Virus record (IMG/VR): IMGVR_UViG_2617271044_000001
Strand: one strand, 5' to 3'
Source of the DNA: a virus
Taxonomy: Duplodnaviria; Heunggongvirae; Uroviricota; Caudoviricetes
Length of the DNA: 9,562 bases
In this document: in pieces, positions 1 through 9,562 of the stretch
Layout of the letters: the number at the start of each line of letters is the position of its first letter
Position numbering within the stretch: the stretch's first letter is position 1
Made by a program: the position numbers and the translations under genes
Notes under the pieces: model-generated
Database searches by the model: none
Told to the model about the DNA's origin: nothing
Seen by the model: only the letters and a program-made list of their open reading frames with translations

Positions 1-355
1 CTTCTATCATCCACTTTCTGAGAGTTTCAACGGATAAAGATAAACCGTGTATCTCGCGCAATTTTTCGCACGCAAACGTAGGTCCAAAATCAGCGTAACG
101 GCCTTTGAGGAGTGAAATTACTGTTGCTCTGAATTCAGTAGAAAAGGAATTATTAGGACGCTTTCCACGTCGGTGGGAAACCAGACCAGAAGGCCCTTCA
201 TTTCTATACCGTTGCACCAGACGTTTAACCTGCCGAATAGAAATGCCAATGCGTGCCGCAGCTTGTTCCTGAGTAATATGTCGATTAATTGACTCCTGAA
301 TAATCTGAAGTCGGTGGAGTTCCTTATGACTCATCGTAACAGTTTCTTTGGTCAT
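1..355 (-). CDS. Transposase, N-terminal part only (gene runs off the window start); IS481/ISNCY-like DDE transposase with N-terminal helix-turn-helix
   Basis: Open minus-strand frame from ATG at 355..353 to position 1 with no stop (118 codons). My translation begins MTKETVTMSHKELHRLQIIQESINRHITQEQAAARIGISIRQVKRLVQRYRNEGPSGLVSHRRGKRPNN. The HTH followed by an RY-x-N-E-G-x-S-G-L and basic R-R-G-K-R-P segment fits the N-terminal architecture of IS481-type transposases. Family assignment is from memory of that pattern; the IS ends are not identifiable in the window. Confidence 0.6.
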   Translation of the reverse strand, partial: MTKETVTMSHKELHRLQIIQESINRHITQEQAAARIGISIRQVKRLVQRYRNEGPSGLVSHRRGKRPNNSFSTEFRATVISLLKGRYADFGPTFACEKLREIHGLSLSVETLRKWMIE

Positions 356-689
356 GAAAAATCCCCCAGAGAATTGTCTGGGGACATTTTAGAATGGTTC
401 AAAGGGGACATTACAGCTTGGTGTTAACAATAGCCTGCTTCTCCTTGCCTTTCGGCACGTAAGAGGCTAACCTACATGTGTCCGGCATGAAATTGGCCTC
501 AGATTAATGTTAAGCGTCTTGCAGGACGCGTAATGTTAACTGGGGCTTTTCTCTACCTGCCGTTGGTGTTCGTGCCCGAGGCAGATAGCCTCAAGCACCC
601 GCAGTCATTCTACTTAACTAAGATTTCCCCGCAAACCGTTTTTGTCCAGCACAGTAAATATCCAACTAAACCAATGGAGTTCGCTGTAT

Positions 690-869
690 TTACCGCCAGT
701 ATTCAATGCACATGACCGCCATGAACACCCCTAAAAAAAGGGCATTTATATATCCAAATATTAATATCAAAACATCAACTTTTTCCATATACCTTGCTGT
801 GAAGATGATGGGCATACATGATGCGAACAACCAGAACGCAACAAACAAAAACTGCAATGCGTTTTTCAT
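690..869 (-). CDS. Small hydrophobic protein, 59 aa, likely two transmembrane segments; function unknown
   Basis: ATG at 869..867 preceded on the minus strand by a canonical AGGAGG (plus 874-879) about 4 nt upstream. Translation MKNALQFLFVAFWLFASCMPIIFTARYMEKVDVLILIFGYINALFLGVFMAVMCIEYWR is dominated by two hydrophobic stretches. The track ORF 690..908 extends it upstream, but that extension has no ribosome-binding site. Confidence 0.45.
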   Translation of the reverse strand: MKNALQFLFVAFWLFASCMPIIFTARYMEKVDVLILIFGYINALFLGVFMAVMCIEYWR

Positions 870-1953
870 TATTCCTCCTACAATCAATGTGCAATTACAT
901 TTAAACACACCTCAATTTGGCCGGACATATAAATATCTAAACCAGAAAAAATCACTTACATAGCGTTACAAACTCTTTAGTCTAAAGGTTCATCGTAAAA
1001 CATTCCCCATACTTATCAGTCCGTTCCGCGCCAGGTAGCTCATTGCCTTATCTGGCAACCTGTAATCAGGTTTCCGCTTTTTCAGTTGGCTGGTCGTTTA
1101 ACCGACATAGTTAACCCATTAATCTAGTTGCCGGATGTTGGTGGATTTTCGCGTTTTAGTTGTTCATAAAAGTGCACAGCTTTAACCAATTCTTCTGATG
1201 TAACCGGGACTGGTGAGGCAGTGAATAAGGCCTGAATTTGATAGTTCGGCCTGTCGTTACAATCCTCTTTTTTCGGTACATATTTCCAGTCACCAGACCA
1301 CTACTTCCCCTGAAAGTCCGTAACGCCTTTTTTCACGTAGCGATATCGCCATGTCACTGGTTTTGCTTGCCCCGCCGTTTCATGCCCTTCCTGATAATTA
1401 ATCTCGCTCATTCATCGCCCCACTCATCACAATATGCTTCGACCGGAGTTTTTCCCGCTTCATAGTCATCACGCTAGGATTCGACATCAGCAGCACTTCC
1501 ACCGCGTAACTCACCATAGTCCATTAATAGTTCATCCCGCTCTTCAAAACTGATGTTATATTTAGCTGAACAAAAATCAGCCACTTTGTTCTTCCTCATC
1601 GTCTTTTATTTCGTGGTATGAGTAATTGCAGTAGTTAAAGAAAATTTCTTATGCTCCGTCATGAATTTCATCAGGTGTTGCGTCATCGTCCACTTCGAAT
1701 ACATCCTCAAAATCTCCACCAGCTATTCCCGTTTCAATAATAATTTTGAACTTTCGCATTTCACTACCGCCCTTTCGGGCGGCCTCCTGATGTTCTGAGG
1801 GTGCAGAAATCCATCCGGTTAAGGATTAAGTTTTATTTACAGAACTGAATTTAATTATTCAGATATACGTATCTGTAACCTTACGAATCTACTCACTGGA
1901 TGCCTCTTTCATAAAAATAATCCAGTGGGTTTTATCGTTTTTTCCCTGTTCGT

Positions 1954-1982
1954 TGACAGATAACAGGCTTTCTATCTGTCAG
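1954..1982. repeat. Inverted repeat TGACAGATA-N11-TATCTGTCA (9-bp perfect arms) just downstream of the methyltransferase-like ORF
   Basis: Direct reading: tgacagata at 1954-1962 and tatctgtca at 1974-1982 are exact reverse complements. No U-tract follows on either strand, so it is not a canonical intrinsic terminator. Confidence 0.5.
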
Positions 1983-2021
1983 TGCCAGAATCTGGCTTAC
2001 CGGTATTTGCGTTTCATTCCA

Positions 2022-2378
2022 TTAAAAAATCAGAACGCCGTGCGGCCTCAACACCCGAAAAGCTTCTTTAAATCTCTGTCGCAAATCATCACGCCAGGCA
2101 TCTTTATTCAGCCGTCCATATTTCTTTCCCATCCAGGCGTTATCACCAACACGCTCAAGATGCGGAGGGTCTAATACAACCATCGAAAAAGATGCGTCTG
2201 CAAATGATAATGCACGAAAATCTGCGATAATGTCAGGGCTGATAATCAAGCGTCTCCCATTGCGTAATGTGTATCCTTCTTTTCTGATATCGCTGAATAT
2301 CGCCCGTTTGTCAGACTTATCGAACCAGAACATGCGGCTGCCACAGCACATATCAAGAATGGTTGCCGGTGCACTCAC
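2022..2378 (-). CDS. SAM-dependent methyltransferase-like protein (DNA N6-adenine/N4-cytosine type motifs), short at 118 aa and possibly truncated
   Basis: Track ORF 2022..2378. The start codon is GTG (plus 2376-2378 = cac), overlapping the upstream stop as GTGA. Motif I-like LDMCCGSR near the N-terminus and a motif IV-like VVLDPPH about 60 residues later. No room for a target-recognition domain, so it is either an unusually small enzyme or a remnant. Confidence 0.55.
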   Translation of the reverse strand: MSAPATILDMCCGSRMFWFDKSDKRAIFSDIRKEGYTLRNGRRLIISPDIIADFRALSFADASFSMVVLDPPHLERVGDNAWMGKKYGRLNKDAWRDDLRQRFKEAFRVLRPHGVLIF

Positions 2379-2797
2379 TGCGCCACGTCCTGAAAATTAC
2401 CCTGATAGAAAGCCAGTATGCGCTGCATAACTTCGCTCTTCCGGCACTCGCGACAGATTATGTTTAGGCGACTGTCGTAGCGACGTATTTCTCCGTCAGG
2501 TGATGACCAGATAAGGTCCGGATCAACCACAGCAGGTTTCTTCACCTTTGCCCTCGAGAGTTTTTTGCGGGCGTTTTGCCAGTCCTTACGCGCCTGTTCA
2601 GAGGGGAATAACCCGTAGCCGGAGTTGTATACATCGCCACTGGCTACCAGCTCTCTGGCAAGAACGCTCATCAGATATCTAGTCGCACCTGTTTTAGCTT
2701 CCAGTTGCCGTAACGTCTCACGGCCGCTCTGGCGCACGAGTTCCACCACCTGCCATTTAATTTTTTCCCGCTCTTCTTGTGTAAAAACTTTTGCCAC
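2375..2797 (-). CDS. Hypothetical phage early protein, 140 aa, with a helix-turn-helix-like segment
   Basis: Track ORF 2375..2797. GTG start (plus 2795-2797 = cac) with a GGGGGA Shine-Dalgarno about 5 nt upstream on the minus strand. Its stop TGA overlaps the GTG of the methyltransferase-like ORF, implying translational coupling. Segment RETLRQLEAKTGATRYLMSVLARELVASGDV looks HTH-like. Confidence 0.55.
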   Translation of the reverse strand: MAKVFTQEEREKIKWQVVELVRQSGRETLRQLEAKTGATRYLMSVLARELVASGDVYNSGYGLFPSEQARKDWQNARKKLSRAKVKKPAVVDPDLIWSSPDGEIRRYDSRLNIICRECRKSEVMQRILAFYQGNFQDVAQ

Positions 2798-2837
2798 CAG
2801 TCCCCCTTAAAATTACCTCATGACCTGAAATCAACAC

Positions 2838-3803
2838 TTATCCTCTGAAACCAGGCGGAATTTCTGTATCCGGTTCAGAAATATGATTAACACAACGCTG
2901 TACAGGTGAACGTCCCAGGCGGATGACCAGTTCGTCCCATTTTTCGCGGAGCTTTGACGGGCTCATGATGTTTTTTACCCAGAATGGATCTCGCTGAACC
3001 CGACCAAACATTTCGCAAATTTGTCTGTGGCTTCTGCCATCCAGCATCCGCATTGTGCGCACGTCATTGGCCCAGGCAGTCCAGTTAGGCTCTTTTGGTC
3101 GCATGATCTCGCCATCATCACTGGCTGCCTGTTCGTAGAGACCCACGATCCGCCCCCAGATCCACTGCGCACACGCCAAATCCTCCCTGCTACCCCACTG
3201 GCGTTTTTTCGCACTAAACACAACCGCGTCGGAGTTCCGGGTTAAAGAATCCTGTTCAGTCGTCTGCGGGTCCGGTTGCGAAGCTTCCGGACGAAAAGTG
3301 TTTTTATTCTCTGTAGTAATCTCTGTTGTATTCTCTGTAAGATCATCAGGCCATTTTGACCCGATGACATTGGGTCGTTTTGAACCAATGGAGCGTTTCA
3401 TTTTGACCTCTTCCATCGTGTCATTTTGACCTGATGGAGCGGCGCATTTTGAACCGATGGATTCGCTCAATTTGCCACCATCTAAAAGCTCGCTCCCATA
3501 GTTGATCGTGTAGAAATTGGTCATATCGCGCTTTGATTTATTGAGCTTTTCACAACGCAAAAGCCCCAGCGTTTTCAGACTTGCAAACGCGCGCTTTAAC
3601 GTTGACTCTGACCAGAATGGGAACTGTTCCAGCCATTGTTCCGTTGTGTTATAAATCCAGCGAACACCATCACATTCCATGCCGGAGTTGGTATCTCTCA
3701 ACCAGTAGTGCAGTTGTTGCAAAACAATGGCTTCGTTTAAGCCAATTTTCATTGCCAGCTGCGTGTTTATAACCAGTGGGCGTTCAGCAAAAAGAAGGCT
3801 CAT
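2838..3803 (-). CDS. Phage replication initiator protein, lambda O-like, with origin iterons embedded in its coding sequence
   Basis: Track ORF 2838..3857 (TTG at 3857). The more plausible start is ATG at 3803..3801, giving MSLLFAERPLVINTQLAMKIGLNEAIVLQQLHYWL..., about 322 aa. The mid-gene DNA repeats translate to repeated peptide motifs (SIGSK three times, TENTTEITTEN), the hallmark organisation of lambda O and ori-lambda. The start overlaps the last 20 nt of the upstream 173-aa gene. Confidence 0.7.
   Translation of the reverse strand: MSLLFAERPLVINTQLAMKIGLNEAIVLQQLHYWLRDTNSGMECDGVRWIYNTTEQWLEQFPFWSESTLKRAFASLKTLGLLRCEKLNKSKRDMTNFYTINYGSELLDGGKLSESIGSKCAAPSGQNDTMEEVKMKRSIGSKRPNVIGSKWPDDLTENTTEITTENKNTFRPEASQPDPQTTEQDSLTRNSDAVVFSAKKRQWGSREDLACAQWIWGRIVGLYEQAASDDGEIMRPKEPNWTAWANDVRTMRMLDGRSHRQICEMFGRVQRDPFWVKNIMSPSKLREKWDELVIRLGRSPVQRCVNHISEPDTEIPPGFRG
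3309..3480. repeat. Putative phage origin of replication: three tandem 12-bp repeats followed by five to six iterons at 23-24 bp spacing
   Basis: Direct reading: ctctgtagtaat / ctctgttgtatt / ctctgtaagatc at 3309-3344, then cattttgaMC-type repeats starting at 3352, about 3376, 3399, 3422 and 3445, with a degenerate copy near 3468. An AT-rich stretch (3296-3310) flanks them. Confidence 0.65.
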
Positions 3804-4305
3804 AATTCCATCCAGCTTTTTGTTGGTATTGCTGTCGATACGCAAGCTTGAAAGCAATTGCTTTTTCTATAAGTTCGTCAGTTTCACGATCCACTACGGC
3901 AGGATCAGCAAAAAGCAGTCCGGACTCCACCACATCGCCATATTCTTTGTTTAACCCGGCGATCATGCACGTGATGCTTTTTCCGTCAGTAATTTCACGA
4001 TACAACCTGAAATCACTAATCCGGATAGCCTCCATAATCGCAGGCACTAGCGCCGTGAACTTTTCACGCTTATCCCTGGTGTCGATAGCCTTCCAGCGTT
4101 CGAATATCTTCACTCGATTAACACCAAGCGCTCGCTGATCAACCGCGCCACCTTCATCTGTGACACGCTGAACATCGATGTTCGGGCGCTCTTTCAAAGC
4201 CCAGAATGCTTCAGTGATTAATATCGTCGCCTGCTCCTGTGTCATTCCTGGTCGACATATCCAGGCATCCAGAGCCTCACGAGCCTGTTCAGGAGTGATT
4301 TTCAT
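3784..4305 (-). CDS. 173-aa early protein between cro-like and replication genes; possibly a YdaT/CII-like regulator (tentative)
   Basis: Track ORF 3784..4305 with ATG at 4305..4303. Its 5' end overlaps the dicC stop by 17 nt and its 3' end is overlapped by the replication gene start, so it is tightly packed in the operon. Protein begins MKITPEQAREALDAWICRPGMTQEQ.... Product assignment is by position and weak remembered similarity only. Confidence 0.55.
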   Translation of the reverse strand: MKITPEQAREALDAWICRPGMTQEQATILITEAFWALKERPNIDVQRVTDEGGAVDQRALGVNRVKIFERWKAIDTRDKREKFTALVPAIMEAIRISDFRLYREITDGKSITCMIAGLNKEYGDVVESGLLFADPAVVDRETDELIEKAIAFKLAYRQQYQQKAGWNYEPSFC

Positions 4306-4519
4306 TGTTCAACCACCCCGCCCGCTTCGTCTTACGATATTCATCATAAACTTTGGGATCATACTGAAGCTCCCCGCCAGATGCCTCCTGTAGACGCATC
4401 GCGCGACCTTCGGGAACTAAATCCCCTTTCCAGCTATAAAGCGAAGCCAAACGAATACCTGCTGCTTGTGCAAGTTTTGTTTTTGAACCGAAATACAAAA
4501 GAGCGTCAGTTTTAAGCAT
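4289..4519 (-). CDS. dicC: Cro-like small DNA-binding regulator (DicC-type)
   Basis: Track ORF, 76 aa, ATG at 4519..4517 with an AGGTG-like Shine-Dalgarno upstream. Transcribed divergently from the repressor gene. The segment GSKTKLAQAAGIRLASLYSWK is a P22-Cro/YdaS-type HTH. Length and genomic context match DicC of the Qin prophage as I recall it. Confidence 0.75.
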   Translation of the reverse strand: MLKTDALLYFGSKTKLAQAAGIRLASLYSWKGDLVPEGRAMRLQEASGGELQYDPKVYDEYRKTKRAGWLNNENHS

Positions 4520-4602
4520 TTAAAACACCTTTATTGTTAGTCATAACTAACAAGATAGATGTTAACAAAAACATAGTCAATACGATTTAGCATTAGCTAA
4601 CT
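4520..4602. promoter_or_regulatory. Divergent promoter/operator region of the dicC/dicA immunity switch
   Basis: 83-bp AT-rich intergenic region between divergent Cro-like and repressor genes. It contains the near-perfect 20-bp palindrome TTGTTAGTcataACTAACAA (4534-4553, 8-bp perfect arms) and the 8-bp palindrome TTAGCTAA (4594-4601, ending 1 nt before the dicA ATG). Exact -35/-10 boxes were not resolved. Confidence 0.55.
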
Positions 4603-5010
4603 ATGGAAACAAAAAATTTAACTATCGGCGAACGCATCAGGTATCGTCGGAAAAACCTCAAACACACCCAAAGGTCTCTTGCTAAAGCCCTGAAAATCTC
4701 CCATGTGTCTGTATCACAATGGGAACGGGGTGATAGTGAACCTACAGGGAAGAACCTTTTTGCCCTCAGCAAAGTATTGCAATGCTCACCAACATGGATT
4801 CTATTTGGCGATGAAGACAAGCAACCAACACCACCTGTTGAGAAGCCAGTTGCCTTATCCCCCAAAGAACTAGAGCTCCTTGAGCTGTTTAATGCACTGC
4901 CAGAATCAGAACAGGATACCCAGCTCGCCGAAATGCGAGCTCGAGTAAAAAACTTCAATAAACTCTTTGAAGAATTACTAAAAGCCCGTCAGCGGACAAA
5001 TAAAAGATAA
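4603..5010 (+). CDS. dicA: XRE-family HTH repressor (DicA-type prophage repressor), 135 aa
   Basis: Track ORF with ATG at 4603 and stop TAA at 5008-5010. N-terminal HTH (RSLAKALKISHVSVSQWERGDSEPTG) typical of Cro/CI-type repressors. Too short to carry a LexA-like peptidase domain. Length and context match DicA. Confidence 0.85.
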   Translation: METKNLTIGERIRYRRKNLKHTQRSLAKALKISHVSVSQWERGDSEPTGKNLFALSKVLQCSPTWILFGDEDKQPTPPVEKPVALSPKELELLELFNALPESEQDTQLAEMRARVKNFNKLFEELLKARQRTNKR

Positions 5011-5045
5011 CATCATCAATGAGTTATCTTTTACCACATCAATTA

Positions 5046-5096
5046 TGTTAGCTATAGCATACAAAATCACTTGACCGATATGTTAGTCATGGCTAA
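5046..5096. promoter_or_regulatory. Operator-like repeats upstream of the ydfA-dicB operon, related to the dicA/dicC palindrome
   Basis: tgttagctatagca (5046-5059) and tgttagtcatggctaa (5081-5096) share the TGTTAG...CTAA half-sites of the 4534-4553 palindrome. A TTGACC (5071-5076) lies between them as a possible -35. Promoter assignment is inferred. Confidence 0.4.
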
Positions 5097-5176
5097 TCTT
5101 GTTTGCATCAACACACCGCACGGTGTTCTCAGCAAACAGTTCCGCTACCCCAGCGTTAAGGGGAAATGAGGTCCGC

Positions 5177-5332
5177 ATGGATACTATCGATCTTGGCAAC
5201 AACGAATCTCTGGTGTACGGCGTGTTTCCAAACCAGGACGGTACGTTCACCGCGATGACGTATACCAAAAGCAAAACGTTTAAAACCGAAAATGGTGCCC
5301 GTCGCTGGCTGGAAAGAAACTCAGGTGAGTGA
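5177..5332 (+). CDS. ydfA: Small prophage protein, 51 aa (YdfA-like)
   Basis: ATG at 5177 with GAGG 6 nt upstream and stop TGA at 5330-5332, in the same frame as track ORF 5099..5332. Protein MDTIDLGNNESLVYGVFPNQDGTFTAMTYTKSKTFKTENGARRWLERNSGE. Position and size match YdfA, the first gene of the dicB operon. Confidence 0.7.
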   Translation: MDTIDLGNNESLVYGVFPNQDGTFTAMTYTKSKTFKTENGARRWLERNSGE

Positions 5333-5333
5333 T

Positions 5334-5462
5334 ATGGATTTCGACACAATCATGGAAAAAGCTTACGAAGAATACTTCGAAGGTCTTGCCGACGGCGAAG
5401 AAGCTCTCAGCTTCAACGAATTTAAACAGGCGCTTTCCAGTTCGGCAAAATCTAACGGCTGA
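5334..5462 (+). CDS. ydfB: Small acidic prophage protein, 42 aa (YdfB-like)
   Basis: ATG at 5334 immediately after the ydfA stop, with AGGTGAG just upstream. Protein MDFDTIMEKAYEEYFEGLADGEEALSFNEFKQALSSSAKSNG, stop TGA at 5460-5462. Below the track size cutoff; found by manual reading. Confidence 0.6.
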   Translation: MDFDTIMEKAYEEYFEGLADGEEALSFNEFKQALSSSAKSNG

Positions 5463-5491
5463 TAAGCGAAACAGCACAGCGAGGAATCAGT

Positions 5492-5710
5492 ATGCAGAAA
5501 CGAGAACCCGTCATCATCGCGCCAGACTATACCGATGATGAACTTTATGAGTGGATGCGCCAGAAAATTAATGCAGCGCAGGATCTGAAATGGGCCAATG
5601 AAGCCAGGGCTAAGCAGGCTGAAAATCTGTCCGCTCTGGAGCAGGATATCACCAATCTGGAAAAAGCAGCGGCATTAAGCATTGCCAGAATGATTACATA
5701 CCCGCGTTAA
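5492..5710 (+). CDS. ydfC: Small prophage protein, 72 aa (YdfC-like)
   Basis: Track ORF with ATG at 5492 and GAGGA about 7 nt upstream. Size and order match YdfC. Confidence 0.7.
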   Translation: MQKREPVIIAPDYTDDELYEWMRQKINAAQDLKWANEARAKQAENLSALEQDITNLEKAAALSIARMITYPR

Positions 5711-6050
5711 TAGCTAACCAACGAAGCTAAGGTTGGTAATTAAGGAGTTCTCCACGGGTGAGGTGGAGTGCGTGCGCCGGACACGGGTGAGCATCCGGCA
5801 CTGACAGTTTACTGAAAGGATATTTCCCTGAAAAGTCAGACCATAACGCGAAAGCGCACGGCGAGGTAGCTGGTTCATAGATAGCCTGTCGTTAAATTTT
5901 CGTCGACCGTGCGCTTCCGGTTGTGGCAACCCGCGAAATGGTGCGGCGGTAAGTATGGCGGGGTTATTTCTTCCCCGTTGAGGACACCGGGTTGTCAGGT
6001 TGACCATACGCTTAAGTGACAACCCCGCTGCAACGCCCTCTGTTATCAAT

Positions 6051-6103
6051 TTTCTGGTGACGTTTGGCGGTATCAGTTTTACTCCGTGACTGCTCTGCCG
6101 CCC
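6051..6103 (+). ncRNA. dicF: DicF small regulatory RNA (53 nt), 3' end at a terminator-like GC stem plus T-run
   Basis: tttctggtgacgtttggcggtatcagttttactccgtgactgctctgccgccc followed by ttttt (6104-6108). This matches the DicF sequence as I remember it, and sits where dicF lies in the operon, between ydfC and dicB. It is preceded by about 340 nt with no ORF and extensive stem potential. Confidence 0.7.
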
Positions 6104-6277
6104 TTTTTAAAGTGAATTTTGTGATGTGGTGAATGCGGCTGAGCGCACGCGGAACAGTTAAAACCAAAAACAGTGTTATGGGTGGATTCTCTGTATCCGG
6201 CGTTAATTGTTAACTGGTTAACGTCACCTGGAGGTACCAGGCACTGCATCACAAAATTCATTGTTGAGGACGCGATA

Positions 6278-6466
6278 ATGAAAACGTTATTACCAAACGT
6301 TAATACGTCTGAAGGTTGTTTTGAAATTGGTGTCACTATCAGTAACCCAGTATTTACTGAAGATGCCATTAACAAGAGAAAACAAGAACGGGAGCTATTA
6401 AATAAAATATGCATTGTTTCAATGCTGGCTCGTTTACGTCTGATGCCAAAAGGATGTGCACAATGA
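6278..6466 (+). CDS. dicB: Cell-division inhibitor DicB-like protein, 62 aa
   Basis: ATG at 6278 with GAGGA about 7 nt upstream, in frame with track ORF 6173..6466. Protein MKTLLPNVNTSEGCFEIGVTISNPVFTEDAINKRKQERELLNKICIVSMLARLRLMPKGCAQ. Size, position after dicF and sequence fit DicB. Confidence 0.8.
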   Translation: MKTLLPNVNTSEGCFEIGVTISNPVFTEDAINKRKQERELLNKICIVSMLARLRLMPKGCAQ

Positions 6467-6654
6467 ATTCAGCATTTGTGCTTGTTCTGACAGTTTTTCT
6501 TGTTTCCGGAGAGCCAGTTGATATTGCAGTCAGTGTTCACAGGACAATGCAGGAGTGTATGACTGCAGCAACCGAACAGAAAATTCCCGGTAACTGTTAC
6601 CCGGTCGATAAAGTTATTCACCAGGATAATATCGAAATCCCGGCAGGTCTTTAA
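6463..6654 (+). CDS. ydfD: Small protein with hydrophobic N-terminus, 63 aa (YdfD-like lysis protein)
   Basis: ATG at 6463 overlapping the dicB stop as ATGA, with AAGGA 8 nt upstream. Protein MNSAFVLVLTVFLVSGEPVDIAVSVHRTMQECMTAATEQKIPGNCYPVDKVIHQDNIEIPAGL. In frame with track ORF 6409..6654. Confidence 0.7.
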   Translation: MNSAFVLVLTVFLVSGEPVDIAVSVHRTMQECMTAATEQKIPGNCYPVDKVIHQDNIEIPAGL

Positions 6655-6746
6655 AACAGTTCCGTAATAAATATCCGGTTTCATTCTTATATGCCAGCAA
6701 TGGCAGGGATTTGTTCATCCTTAAATCTGTCATGAGGTTAAAACAA

Positions 6747-9218
6747 ATGAGTAAAGTCTTTATTTGCGCCGCTATTCCTGACGAACTGGCAACAAGGGAA
6801 GAAGGCGCTGTGGCTGTAGCCACAGCCATTGAAGCTGGCGACGAACGCCGTGCTCGAGCAAAATTTCACTGGCAATTCCTGGAACATTATCCGGCTGCTC
6901 AGGACTGCGCTTATAAATTTATTGTCTGCGAGGATAAACCTGGCATACCCCGCCCTGCCCTCGATTCATGGGATGCTGAATATATGCAGGAAAACCGCTG
7001 GGATGAGGAGTCTGCTTCTTTTGTCCCGGTTGAGACTGAATCCGATCCGATGAACGTCACTTTTGACAAGCTGGCCCCTGAAGTACAGAACGCTGTCATG
7101 GTTAAGTTCGACACATGTGAAAACATCACCGTTGATATGGTTATTAGCGCACAGGAATTGTTGCAGGAAGACATGGCAACATTCGACGGACATATCGTTG
7201 AAGCGTTGATGAAAATGCCAGAAGTTAACGCCATGTATCCGGAGCTTAAGTTGCACGCCATTGGGTGGGTTAAGCATAAATGTATTCCTGGTGCTAAATG
7301 GCCCGAAATTCAGGCAGAGATGCGCATCTGGAAAAAACGTCGCGAAGGTGAACGCAAGGAAACCGGAAAATACACGTCTGTTGTTGATCTCGCCCGCGCC
7401 AGAGCCAATCAACAGTACACTGAAAATTCAACAGGAAAAATCAGCCCGGTCATTGCTGCCATTCATCGCGAATACAAGCAGACATGGAAAACACTGGATG
7501 ACGAACTGGCCTACGCTCTCTGGCCTGGTGATGTGGATGCCGGAAACATTGACGGCAGCATCCATCGCCGGGCAAAAAATGAAGTTATCGACAACGACCG
7601 CGAAGACTGGAAGCGTATCTCGGCATCAATGCGCAAACAGCCTGATGCCCTTCGCTACGACCGCCAAACTATTTTTGGCCTTGTCCGTGAGCGTCCGATC
7701 GACATTCACAAAGATCCCGTAGCACTGAACAAATATATCTGCGAATACCTGACGACAAAGGGCGTGTTTGAGAATGAAGAAACAGACCTGGGCACTGTTG
7801 ATGTTCTCCAGTCATCAGAAACACAAACTGATGCAGTGGAAACTGAGGTATCTGATATCCCAAAAAATGAAACCGCGCCGGAAGCTGAACCATCTGTAGA
7901 GCGTGAGGGGCCGTTCTATTTCCTCTTCGCAGATAAGGACGGAGAAAAATACGGTCGCGCAAACAAACTTTCTGGTCTGGATAAGGCACTGGCTGCTGGC
8001 GCCACTGAAATCACAAAAGAAGAATATTTTGCCCGAAAAAATGGCACATACACGGGCTTACCGCAAAATGTAGATACCGCTGAAGATTCAGAACAACCAG
8101 AGCCGATAAAAGTTACCGCTGACGAAGTAAACAAAATTATGCAGGCAGCCAATATCATCCAGCCTGACGCCGATAAGTTGCTTGCTGCATCACGTGGTGA
8201 ATTTGTTGAAGGGATTAGTGACCCGAATGATCCGAAATGGGTTAAGGGGATCCAGACCCGCGATTCTGTGAACCAGAACCAGCATGAATCGGAACGGAAC
8301 TACCAAAAAGCGGAACAAAACAGCCCAAATGCGTTACAAAACGAGCCAGAAACGAAACAGCCTGAATCAGTGGCGCAACAGGAAGTGGAAAAAGTCTGCA
8401 CCGCCTGCGGTCAGACCGGCGGCGGCAACTGCCCTGATTGTGGCGCGGTAATGGGCGACGCAACATACCAGGAAACATTCGATGAAGAGTATCAGGTTGA
8501 AGTTCAGGAAGATGATCCGGAGGAAATGGAAGGCGCTGAACATCCACACAAGGAGAACACTGGCGGCAATCAGCATCACGATAGCGATAATGAAACTGGC
8601 GAGACGGCAGATCACTCAATTAAGGTGAACGGTCATCAAGAAATCACATCCACCAGCAGGACGTGTGACCATCTAATGATCGACCTTGAAACCATGGGAA
8701 AAAATCCTGATGCCCCGATCATCTCAATAGGTGCAATATTTTTCGATCCGCAAACCGGAGATATGGGACCGGAATTTAGTAAGACTATCGATCTGGAAAC
8801 TGCTGGCGGAGTCATTGATCGGGACACCATTAAATGGTGGCTTAAGCAATCACGCGAAGCGCAATCTGCCATTATGACCGATGAAATCCCGTTAGATGAT
8901 GCACTGTTACAATTGCGGGAATTTATCGACGAAAACTCCGGTGAATTTTTTGTTCAGGTCTGGGGAAATGGAGCCAACTTCGACAACACGATTTTGCGCC
9001 GTTCATACGAACGGCAGGGGATCCCCTGCCCGTGGCGTTACTACAACGATCGCGATGTACGCACAATCGTTGAGCTGGGGAAAGCCATAGACTTCGATGC
9101 CAGAACGGCTATTCCATTCGAAGGTGAGCGCCATAATGCACTTGATGACGCCCGTTACCAGGCAAAATACGTTTCAGTTATCTGGCAAAAACTGATCCCG
9201 AGTCAGGCTGATTCTTAA
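6747..9218 (+). CDS. Large prophage protein (~823 aa): N-terminal ~550 aa of unknown function, CxxC-x7-CxxC zinc-ribbon motif, acidic linker, C-terminal DnaQ-like DEDDh 3'-5' exonuclease domain
   Basis: Track ORF 6711..9218 begins at a TTG. ATG at 6747 with GAGG 8 nt upstream is the likelier start (MSKVFICAAIPDELATREEG...). Exonuclease motifs seen directly: MIDLETMG (Exo I, D-x-E), VWGNGANFDN (Exo II), HNALDDARYQAKY (Exo III, H-x4-D). Zinc ribbon CTACGQTGGGNCPDCG is encoded from 8397 to about 8444, followed by an E/D-rich stretch. It occupies the position of ydfE in the dicB operon. Confidence 0.8.
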   Translation: MSKVFICAAIPDELATREEGAVAVATAIEAGDERRARAKFHWQFLEHYPAAQDCAYKFIVCEDKPGIPRPALDSWDAEYMQENRWDEESASFVPVETESDPMNVTFDKLAPEVQNAVMVKFDTCENITVDMVISAQELLQEDMATFDGHIVEALMKMPEVNAMYPELKLHAIGWVKHKCIPGAKWPEIQAEMRIWKKRREGERKETGKYTSVVDLARARANQQYTENSTGKISPVIAAIHREYKQTWKTLDDELAYALWPGDVDAGNIDGSIHRRAKNEVIDNDREDWKRISASMRKQPDALRYDRQTIFGLVRERPIDIHKDPVALNKYICEYLTTKGVFENEETDLGTVDVLQSSETQTDAVETEVSDIPKNETAPEAEPSVEREGPFYFLFADKDGEKYGRANKLSGLDKALAAGATEITKEEYFARKNGTYTGLPQNVDTAEDSEQPEPIKVTADEVNKIMQAANIIQPDADKLLAASRGEFVEGISDPNDPKWVKGIQTRDSVNQNQHESERNYQKAEQNSPNALQNEPETKQPESVAQQEVEKVCTACGQTGGGNCPDCGAVMGDATYQETFDEEYQVEVQEDDPEEMEGAEHPHKENTGGNQHHDSDNETGETADHSIKVNGHQEITSTSRTCDHLMIDLETMGKNPDAPIISIGAIFFDPQTGDMGPEFSKTIDLETAGGVIDRDTIKWWLKQSREAQSAIMTDEIPLDDALLQLREFIDENSGEFFVQVWGNGANFDNTILRRSYERQGIPCPWRYYNDRDVRTIVELGKAIDFDARTAIPFEGERHNALDDARYQAKYVSVIWQKLIPSQADS

Positions 9219-9230
9219 TGTTCAACTGTC

Positions 9231-9260
9231 GCCGGTTGTGACTGGTATTCTGCAACCGGC
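9231..9260 (+). other. Stem-loop (8-bp GC-rich stem, 14-nt loop) between the exonuclease gene and the excisionase-like gene
   Basis: gccggttg (9231-9238) and caaccggc (9253-9260) are exact reverse complements. No T-run follows, so probably not a simple intrinsic terminator. Confidence 0.35.
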
Positions 9261-9290
9261 GCTCGTCTGATGTAAGAGATAAAGAAATCG

Positions 9291-9491
9291 ATGAGCGAAG
9301 TAATCATGATTGTCTCTCCCGGCAAATGGGTATCCGAAGAGCAGTTAATTGCGCTGAAAGGAATAAAAAAAGGTACGTTAAAAAAGGCCCGGGAAAAATC
9401 GTTTATGGAAGGAAGGGAATATAAGCATGTCGCTCATGACGGTATGCCATGGGATAACAGTCCAGGTGATGCTGCCAACTTACTGATTTAG
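9291..9491 (+). CDS. Excisionase-like small DNA-binding protein (lambda Xis-like), 66 aa
   Basis: Track ORF with ATG at 9291. It contains a W ... GREY arrangement (KW at residues 12-13, EGREYKHVAHDG later) reminiscent of lambda Xis (QEW ... DGREYLFHE). It lies at the distal end of the repressor-side operon, where xis/int sit in lambdoid phages. Assignment is by motif and position. Confidence 0.5.
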   Translation: MSEVIMIVSPGKWVSEEQLIALKGIKKGTLKKAREKSFMEGREYKHVAHDGMPWDNSPGDAANLLI

Positions 9492-9562
9492 TGTATGATG
9501 GTGTTTTTGAGGTGCTCCAGTGGCTTCTGTTTCTATCAGCTGTCCCTCCTGTTCAGCTACTG

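Follow-up and report, generated by a model that had tools for sequence, protein, structure and literature searches.

Introduction

The recE gene of the Rac prophage, which encodes exonuclease VIII and is partnered by recT, is the last large early-left gene before xis-int. Full-length RecE, that is, its scaffold, specifically enhances linear-linear recombination (PMC11611040). Exonucleases of another kind are represented by DexA of phage T4, a DNA 3'-5' exonuclease (PMC12153337), and by Rv2179c of M. tuberculosis, the founder of Pfam family PF16473 and a bacterial stand-alone exoribonuclease. DnaQ-like nucleases have been reported within the recombination (Rec) modules of lambdoid phages, where phage Tritos is the prototype of a module type with a nuclease and without an annealase (single-strand annealing protein, SAP), a single-strand-binding protein (SSB) or an anti-RecBCD function, according to the main text of Zheng et al. 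2025 (PMC12315714). Here we analysed a stretch of 9,562 nucleotides (the window; IMG/VR record IMGVR_UViG_2617271044_000001), a Qin-type lambdoid prophage of E. coli whose positions 1-9464 are 99.97% identical to the Qin locus beside rspB in strain A38. Its intact ydfE-type 'exonuclease' gene (6747..9218, +) encodes a protein of 823 amino acids (aa) and occupies the same slot as recE, at the distal end of the early-left (dicB) operon, which is under repressor control, and beside xis-int. Judged by its homologies, this gene is a catalogued and extremely common RecE variant, in which a DexA-like 3'-5' exonuclease head sits on a RecE-type scaffold and RecT has been lost.

The C-terminal exonuclease domain

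A sequence-only reading of the window had described a multidomain protein of 823 aa ending in a complete DEDDh exonuclease domain, and the profile searches bore this out. The fold of residues 640-823 (8664..9215, +) was assigned from sequence profiles and catalytic residues as a DEDDh (DnaQ/DexA/Rv2179c-like) 3'-5' exonuclease. PF16473 (Rv2179c-like 3'-5' exonuclease) matched residues 642-813 over profile positions 2-177 of 177 (E=2.5e-67; 226.4 bits against a cut-off of 27), and the match to RNase_T was weak. The motifs MIDLET, NFD and HNALDD start at residues 644, 744 and 796; these and the zinc ribbon described below all lie where the sequence-only reading had placed them. All five catalytic residues are present, namely D646 and E648 in MIDLET, D746 in NFD, and H796 and D801 in HNALDD. 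The residues D646, E648 and D746 align with D7, E9 and D119 of T4 DexA, whose structure (8KEL) was the sole solved one matched by sequence (E=5e-8, about 26% identity); a phmmer search against the chains of the Protein Data Bank (PDB) gave no match besides DexA, Rv2179c included. The head would probably act by two-metal-ion, Mg-dependent hydrolysis of 3'-terminal nucleotides, with DNA as the likeliest substrate, and the predicted polarity is opposite to that of Exo and RecE, as had been proposed.

The domain belongs to the same DEDDh subfamily as DexA and its E. coli homologue EcD ('HREX'), with the catalytic residues conserved, and it shares with Rv2179c the Pfam family, through a full-length domain match. 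DexA and EcD stand alone, at about 190-230 aa, whereas the domain studied here forms the head of a scaffold protein of 823 aa, and the extra loops of DexA are absent from it. Stand-alone homologues, described in PMC12315714, also occur in lambdoid phages (gene 29 of epsilon34/g341c and gene 34 of LLS), and these are 56-58% identical to residues 640-823. They lie in the early-left operon, either in a Rec module or, as here, upstream of xis-int. In the P22-like phage g341c, the homologue (56% identical) stands inside a recombination module of the order erf-ssb-exo-abc2. Unlike the 823-aa protein, these homologues are not fused to a RecE-type scaffold, and g341c owns an annealase and an SSB.

The scaffold and its heads

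The part in front of the head, in which the sequence-only reading had seen about 550 aa without a motif, does have relatives, namely the middle region of RecE and the Pfam families YdfE_N (PF27430) and YdfE_C (PF27432). Nor are the zinc ribbon, the acidic linker and the roughly 360 residues upstream of them new, as they correspond to the non-catalytic region of RecE. In BLASTP, residues 262-625 matched residues 278-591 of K-12 RecE (E=1e-62), and the NCBIfam exoVIII model NF007259 matched residues 246-625 through its positions 271-602 (E=2.8e-84), with a score of 283.8 bits that lies far under the equivalog cut-off of 1269 bits. Residues 468-625, which hold the hinge motif, the zinc ribbon and the acidic linker, are about 85% identical to K-12 RecE by BLASTP. 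The first 260 or so residues are of the YdfE type, not of the K-12 RecE type. The YdfE_N and YdfE_C assignments come from precomputed matches on cluster representatives that share 86-99% identity with the query, as well as on a 900-aa sibling; a Pfam search with residues 1-550 found no match in a Pfam copy predating these two families. An earlier suggestion that the N-terminal region might simply be a known RecE domain of characterised function holds in part: the RecE region is homologous, but its known function is limited to boosting linear-linear recombination (PMC11611040).

Past residue ~620, the identity that the protein shares with RecE and with the 900-aa sibling collapses. The PD-(D/E)XK nuclease of RecE (PF12684/DUF3799, RecE residues 606-866) had no match in the 823-aa protein, which carries a DEDDh 3'-5' head where RecE has a PD-(D/E)XK 5'-3' head, and no recT lies beside the gene. 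When residues 1-640 were used for a database search, the best matches were E. coli proteins of 900 aa, whose identity over the query reaches 97% and which end in PF12684 and not in PF16473. At the Rac attachment site, their loci have the order dicB-ydfD-[900 aa]-recT-lar-xis-int. The claim that the nuclease has no recombinase partner is correct for this locus, which is without recT, but the near-identical scaffold adjoins recT in the siblings, where it bears the RecE head. Between the window and sibling P0116, the protein is 89% identical over residues 1-625 and the DNA 94% identical; DNA homology between the window and the RecE-head/recT sibling extends over 5138-8613 and ends inside the acidic linker, marking the cassette junction. 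The reverse arrangement was found in phage 813R8, in which a RecE-K12-like N-terminus (58% identical to RecE 50-591) is joined to the hinge and the DEDDh head, both of which match the window at 98-100% identity from residue ~451 on. Each of the two scaffold types therefore occurs with each of the two nuclease heads, which indicates that the gene is, by its sequence relationships, a RecE-family scaffold with an exchangeable catalytic cassette.

An AlphaFold2 (AF2) model covering residues 1-460 (mean pLDDT 83) gave the outline of the scaffold, all of it on the plus strand. An alpha/beta domain in the YdfE_N region (residues 1-100, 6747..7046, pLDDT >90) is followed by two helical domains, at residues 110-205 (7074..7361) and 246-340 (7482..7766), and the homology to RecE starts in the second of these (RecE 278 onward). 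An acidic linker with 32% D+E (residues 341-387, 7767..7907), disordered in the model at 346-383, leads to a small beta-hairpin/helix domain (residues 388-432, 7908..8042). Comparison of the model with solved structures revealed no useful resemblance. The most conserved motif of the family, the hinge DKLLAASRGEFVEGISDPNDPKWVKGIQTRD (residues 476-506, 8172..8264), is about 95% identical in K-12 RecE. Family-wide conservation is best at residues 476-500 (8172-8246), with the pattern L-A-A-x-R-G-E-F-V-E-G-I-S-D-P-x-D-P-K-W-V-K. This stretch sits in an otherwise disordered region and looks like a putative short binding motif. The CxxC-x7-CxxC zinc ribbon (C551, C554, C562 and C565; 8397..8444), which reads CTACGQTGGGNCPDCG from residue 551, is shared with K-12 RecE, where it reads CNACGQTGGDNCPDCG; it is limited to 7-8 of the 48 family representatives. 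A second acidic linker with 27% D+E (residues ~566-639, 8445..8663) contains the cassette junction at 8613 and connects to the head.

The ratio of nonsynonymous to synonymous substitution rates (dN/dS) was 0.10 for residues 1-330 against the RecE-head sibling, 0.24 for residues 391-620 and 0.10 for the hinge against 813R8. In the disordered linker it was 0.60, indicating relaxed selection. With values of 0.10-0.24 in its folded parts, the folded scaffold is under purifying selection irrespective of which head is attached.

The scaffold family is narrow, with 250 clusters (50% identity) matched among 1.84 billion proteins. By sequence probes, 6 of 49 long representatives have the DEDDh head, 13 have the RecE head and 30 have neither. 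At least nine of these 30 have a common C-terminal domain containing 'GEAQKKSLTDALKKALSLLGFSADV', which gave a sub-threshold match to Pfam Rad52_Rad22 (E=0.0047), and a gene with this domain lies in a locus of the order kilR-gam-[gene]-Sipho_Gp157-xis-int. The profile of this annealase-like domain found nothing in the PDB by sequence, nor did hhalign against Erf and RecT; its identity was resolved solely by structure comparison, using the predicted structure of an annealase-bearing relative. On this model, one scaffold is fused, depending on the phage, to a nuclease of 5'-3' polarity, to one of 3'-5' polarity or to a single-strand annealing domain. Three interchangeable heads on one scaffold would place the scaffold in recombination, and we regard this as our strongest argument.

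Two further variants were observed. A fourth scaffold variant of 702 aa (P0126; L013 6001-8109) has about 260 C-terminal residues without a Pfam match, is listed in PHROGs as phrog_26058 with function unknown, and lies in a locus of the order kilR-[gene]-xis-int without an annealase. In a protein of 527 aa (P0121), scaffold residues 1-385 are fused straight to the DEDDh head. Small beta domain, hinge motif and zinc ribbon are all missing from this variant, an arrangement suggesting that these three elements are dispensable for some function.

Distribution, active phages and Chi sites

The DEDDh cassette (8664-9218) was present in 4048 of 5426 complete E. coli genomes (75%), at 8111 places and with at most seven copies per genome, the number reached in strains of the enterohaemorrhagic (EHEC) type. 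It is commoner than the RecE nuclease cassette, which was found in 1730 genomes and whose match spans both recE and recT in all eight records listed. The intact 823-codon frame occurs in 3537 genomes. Full-length copies were also found in active phages, including HannyBb, PhiR42_1, mEp460_ev081, Evi and Tritos. Tritos, a plaque-forming prophage of strain LF82 (PMC9928086), has the identical operon layout and a 98.9% identical gene. With its presence in plaque-forming phages and the abundance of its cassette, the gene is functional rather than a relic.

Many phage records (for example OV696610 26518-28989, PV340562 and ON470619) label the gene 'exodeoxyribonuclease VIII / ds DNA exonuclease' despite the absence of a RecE nuclease domain, and RefSeq instead uses 'exonuclease' or '3'-5' exonuclease'. 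The former label implies the wrong polarity and a RecT partner that is lacking here. Correction of the annotation would be of practical value, as might recombineering tools based on 3'-5' resection.

The sequence-only reading was also right that no annealase partner precedes xis in this element, and its intact phage relatives HannyBb, Tritos and 813R8 have none either. The annotated early-left operons of the A38 locus, Tritos and 813R8 contain neither RecT nor Bet, Erf or Sak; no annealase is annotated across the entire HannyBb genome; and no annealase, SSB or Gam was found among the upstream operon genes of the window (4603..6654). From the A38 and Tritos annotation and the open reading frames (ORFs) of the window, the locus has a nuclease and no annealase, SSB or RecBCD inhibitor. 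In this respect and in its operon it resembles the Tritos-type Rec module, which is Chi-rich with clustering in the right arm. That class is listed in the main text of PMC12315714, where all four of its members are reported to be Chi-rich on the top strand, with 7-21 sites; the build of scaffold plus DEDDh head and its relation to the RecE cassette are not described in that main text. In our counts, Tritos has eight Chi sites on the top strand and two on the bottom strand, every one within the 20 kb of the right arm, and HannyBb has five and two, with 0.85 expected. The window itself has two Chi sites in 9.5 kb. One of them, GCTGGTGG (8650..8657, -), lies inside the 823-codon gene at the border between the linker and the DEDDh domain and is conserved in Tritos and HannyBb. 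This intragenic site is oriented as the right-arm Chi clusters of HannyBb and Tritos are. In phage LLS, a Chi site is also located at the 3' end of the stand-alone DnaQ-like gene (L010 7545).

Possible roles of the protein

We consider that the protein has an about even chance (a probability of roughly 0.5) of being an early-lytic DNA-end processing enzyme, in which a RecE-family scaffold with a DEDDh head assists host recombination. What is observed here comprises the architecture, the cassette swap, the selection on the scaffold, the intact catalytic residues, the operon position and the absence of an annealase. In the N-terminal 625 residues, three folded domains would combine with a small beta domain, the hinge, the zinc ribbon and acidic linkers into a non-catalytic scaffold, on which the PD-(D/E)XK head of RecE, together with recT, would have been replaced by a DnaQ/DexA-like DEDDh domain at a junction in the acidic linker. 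After induction or infection, the scaffold would deliver the 3'-5' exonuclease, encoded in the usual slot of a recombination module, to DNA ends, and the head would strip nucleotides from 3' ends, most likely those of DNA. Such 3'-end trimming or resection may support the joining of linear phage DNA into concatemers by RecBCD, Chi and RecA; an alternative route would be annealase-independent joining via annealing of 5' tails. In neither case would the enzyme be half of a classical Exo/annealase pair.

The proposal of 3'-end trimming for host-driven or annealase-independent joining follows from the absence of an annealase and of a RecBCD inhibitor and from the excess of correctly oriented Chi sites. 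The annealase-less phage LLS grows better with RecBCD, as stated in the main text of PMC12315714. The E. coli 3'-5' exonuclease XthA alone makes cohesive ends by which linear DNAs are joined in vivo (PMC6379578), and this precedent, together with the boost given by the RecE scaffold (PMC11611040), makes pro-recombination 3'-5' resection credible.

Several points weigh against such a role. Exonucleases of the DnaQ family, ExoI and ExoX among them, usually inhibit recombination in that they destroy 3' tails (PMC12315714), and a xonA mutation enhances RecET assembly (PMC13048471). The stand-alone homologue of LLS lies directly upstream of xis-int, outside any Rec module, and copies near int such as this one are treated cautiously by the authors in that main text (PMC12315714). 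PF16473 is named after an RNase and an RNA substrate is possible; Chi enrichment and gene position are correlations only; and we found no functional study of ydfE in the literature.

One alternative is a prophage-encoded nuclease for defence against other phages. In E. coli, EcD is reported to degrade T4 DNA, and its expression from a plasmid protects cells (PMC12153337); a nuclease of this HREX/EcD type would degrade the 5-hydroxymethylcytosine (5hmC) DNA of T-even phages and spare host DNA. The C-terminal domain is related to DexA, and 75% of E. coli genomes retain the cassette, in many cases within decayed prophages. We nevertheless find this explanation improbable. The residues proposed to recognise 5hmC, W152 and D169 of DexA (PMC12153337), are replaced by Y766 and A788, at positions where the alignment to DexA is weak; LLS gp34 and g341c gp29 retain both the W and the D, and among the three lambdoid proteins the alignment is unambiguous. 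The gene is distal in a repressed lytic operon and is absent from the genes expressed in the Tritos lysogen LF82 (Table 1, PMC9928086). PADLOC gave a generic CRISPR-associated DEDDh match alone (E=7.8e-7) and nothing specific, for which reason we did not file the protein as a defence system. The RecE scaffold and the swap with RecE plus RecT would also be left unexplained. Another alternative is a nuclease of counter-defence or host takeover, which would destroy host nucleic acids with a part in immunity, such as retron msDNA, reverse-transcribed cDNA or 3' ends made by host nucleases, or would scavenge fragments of host DNA for nucleotides as T4 DexA does. Early expression from the leftward operon, alongside the host-manipulating dicB, DicF and ydfD, fits that explanation, as does the scavenging role of DexA (PMC12153337). 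It leaves the recombination-linked scaffold and the annealase-bearing relatives unaccounted for, and we give it a small chance. Temperate lambdoid phages are not known to degrade the host chromosome. The evidence favours end processing in the recombination slot over both defence and counter-defence.

The name of the top Pfam family, '3'-5' exoribonuclease Rv2179c-like', raises the question of an RNA role in lytic growth, such as 3' trimming of phage or host transcripts or small RNAs (sRNAs), or removal of RNA from R-loops or primers. NCBI names many copies '3'-5' exoribonuclease', and the same operon makes a processed sRNA, DicF. Such a role is unlikely in our view, as sequence searches matched a single solved relative, the DNA exonuclease DexA, the scaffold also takes a DNA nuclease (RecE) or a DNA annealase in place of this head, and stand-alone homologues lie between ssb and abc2 in DNA recombination modules. 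That the gene is a decaying, functionless recE remnant of cryptic prophages has very little left to recommend it. The K-12 ydfE is indeed a pseudogene cut by IS2E, in line with the sequence-only reading, which had called it disrupted by an insertion sequence, and the element in the window is decayed as well, with IS1 in xis and pseudogenes upstream. Against this stand the frame intact in 3537 genomes, the preservation of every catalytic residue, the dN/dS of 0.10-0.24 in the folded parts and the occurrence of the gene in plaque-forming Tritos and HannyBb (PMC9928086); these conservation data effectively refute the remnant explanation.

If end processing is extended to the whole family, the YdfE/RecE N-terminus would be a general recombination hub with swappable heads (a 5'-3' nuclease, a 3'-5' nuclease or a Rad52-like annealase), and the DEDDh form would provide a second, polarity-reversed route of phage end joining, in which 5' tails laid bare by 3'-5' resection anneal without a phage annealase or ends are prepared for RecBCD and Chi. 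This extension is tentative, and we would not count it as likely. If true, it would explain concatemer formation in the large 'no annealase' class of lambdoid phages and account for the long-unexplained 600-residue N-terminus of RecE. Opposite nucleases and, elsewhere, an annealase on a near-identical scaffold offer a natural comparison for the function of the RecE N-terminus, and the same comparison bears on how Chi-rich annealase-less lambdoid phages recombine.

Gene neighbourhood and other features

The ORF spans 6711-9218 (+). From the ATG at 6747, with a Shine-Dalgarno sequence GAGG (6734..6737, +) 9 nt on its 5' side, to the TAA stop codon at 9216-9218, it encodes the 823-aa product, which is 100% identical to RefSeq WP_016242145.1 ('exonuclease'). 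The coordinates of the other operon genes were transferred from the 99.97% identical A38 record, and DicF was located by an Rfam match. All on the plus strand, the early-left operon has the order dicA (4603-5010), ydfA (5177-5332), ydfB (5334-5462), ydfC (5492-5710), DicF sRNA (6052-6103), dicB (6278-6466), ydfD (6463-6654) and the 823-aa gene, followed by xis.

The excisionase gene xis (9291..9464, +) starts after 72 nt from the stop codon and, by comparison with A38, is interrupted after codon 58 by IS1. The end of the window (9465-9562) is the IS1 terminus, a 100% match to IS1A that occurs at 72,714 places in E. coli genomes. Since intact xis in A38 and Tritos encodes 83 aa, this prophage copy is probably unable to excise normally. 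The interval that separates the stop codon from xis holds an inverted repeat, CGCCGGTTG...CAACCGGCG, at 9231-9262, and the high DNA identity between the window and phage 813R8 stops precisely at 9262. We did not call this hairpin a terminator, as its fold was not better than that of shuffled sequence (z=-1.2) and it is without a T tract.

The A38 record shows several pseudogenes left of dicC, namely a methyltransferase gene with a frameshift, a DUF7167 gene that contains an internal stop and a truncated ISEsa1 transposase. Although the prophage is decaying, it retains the intact 823-codon frame. An Rfam match to the sok antitoxin RNA was located at 429-600 on the minus strand.

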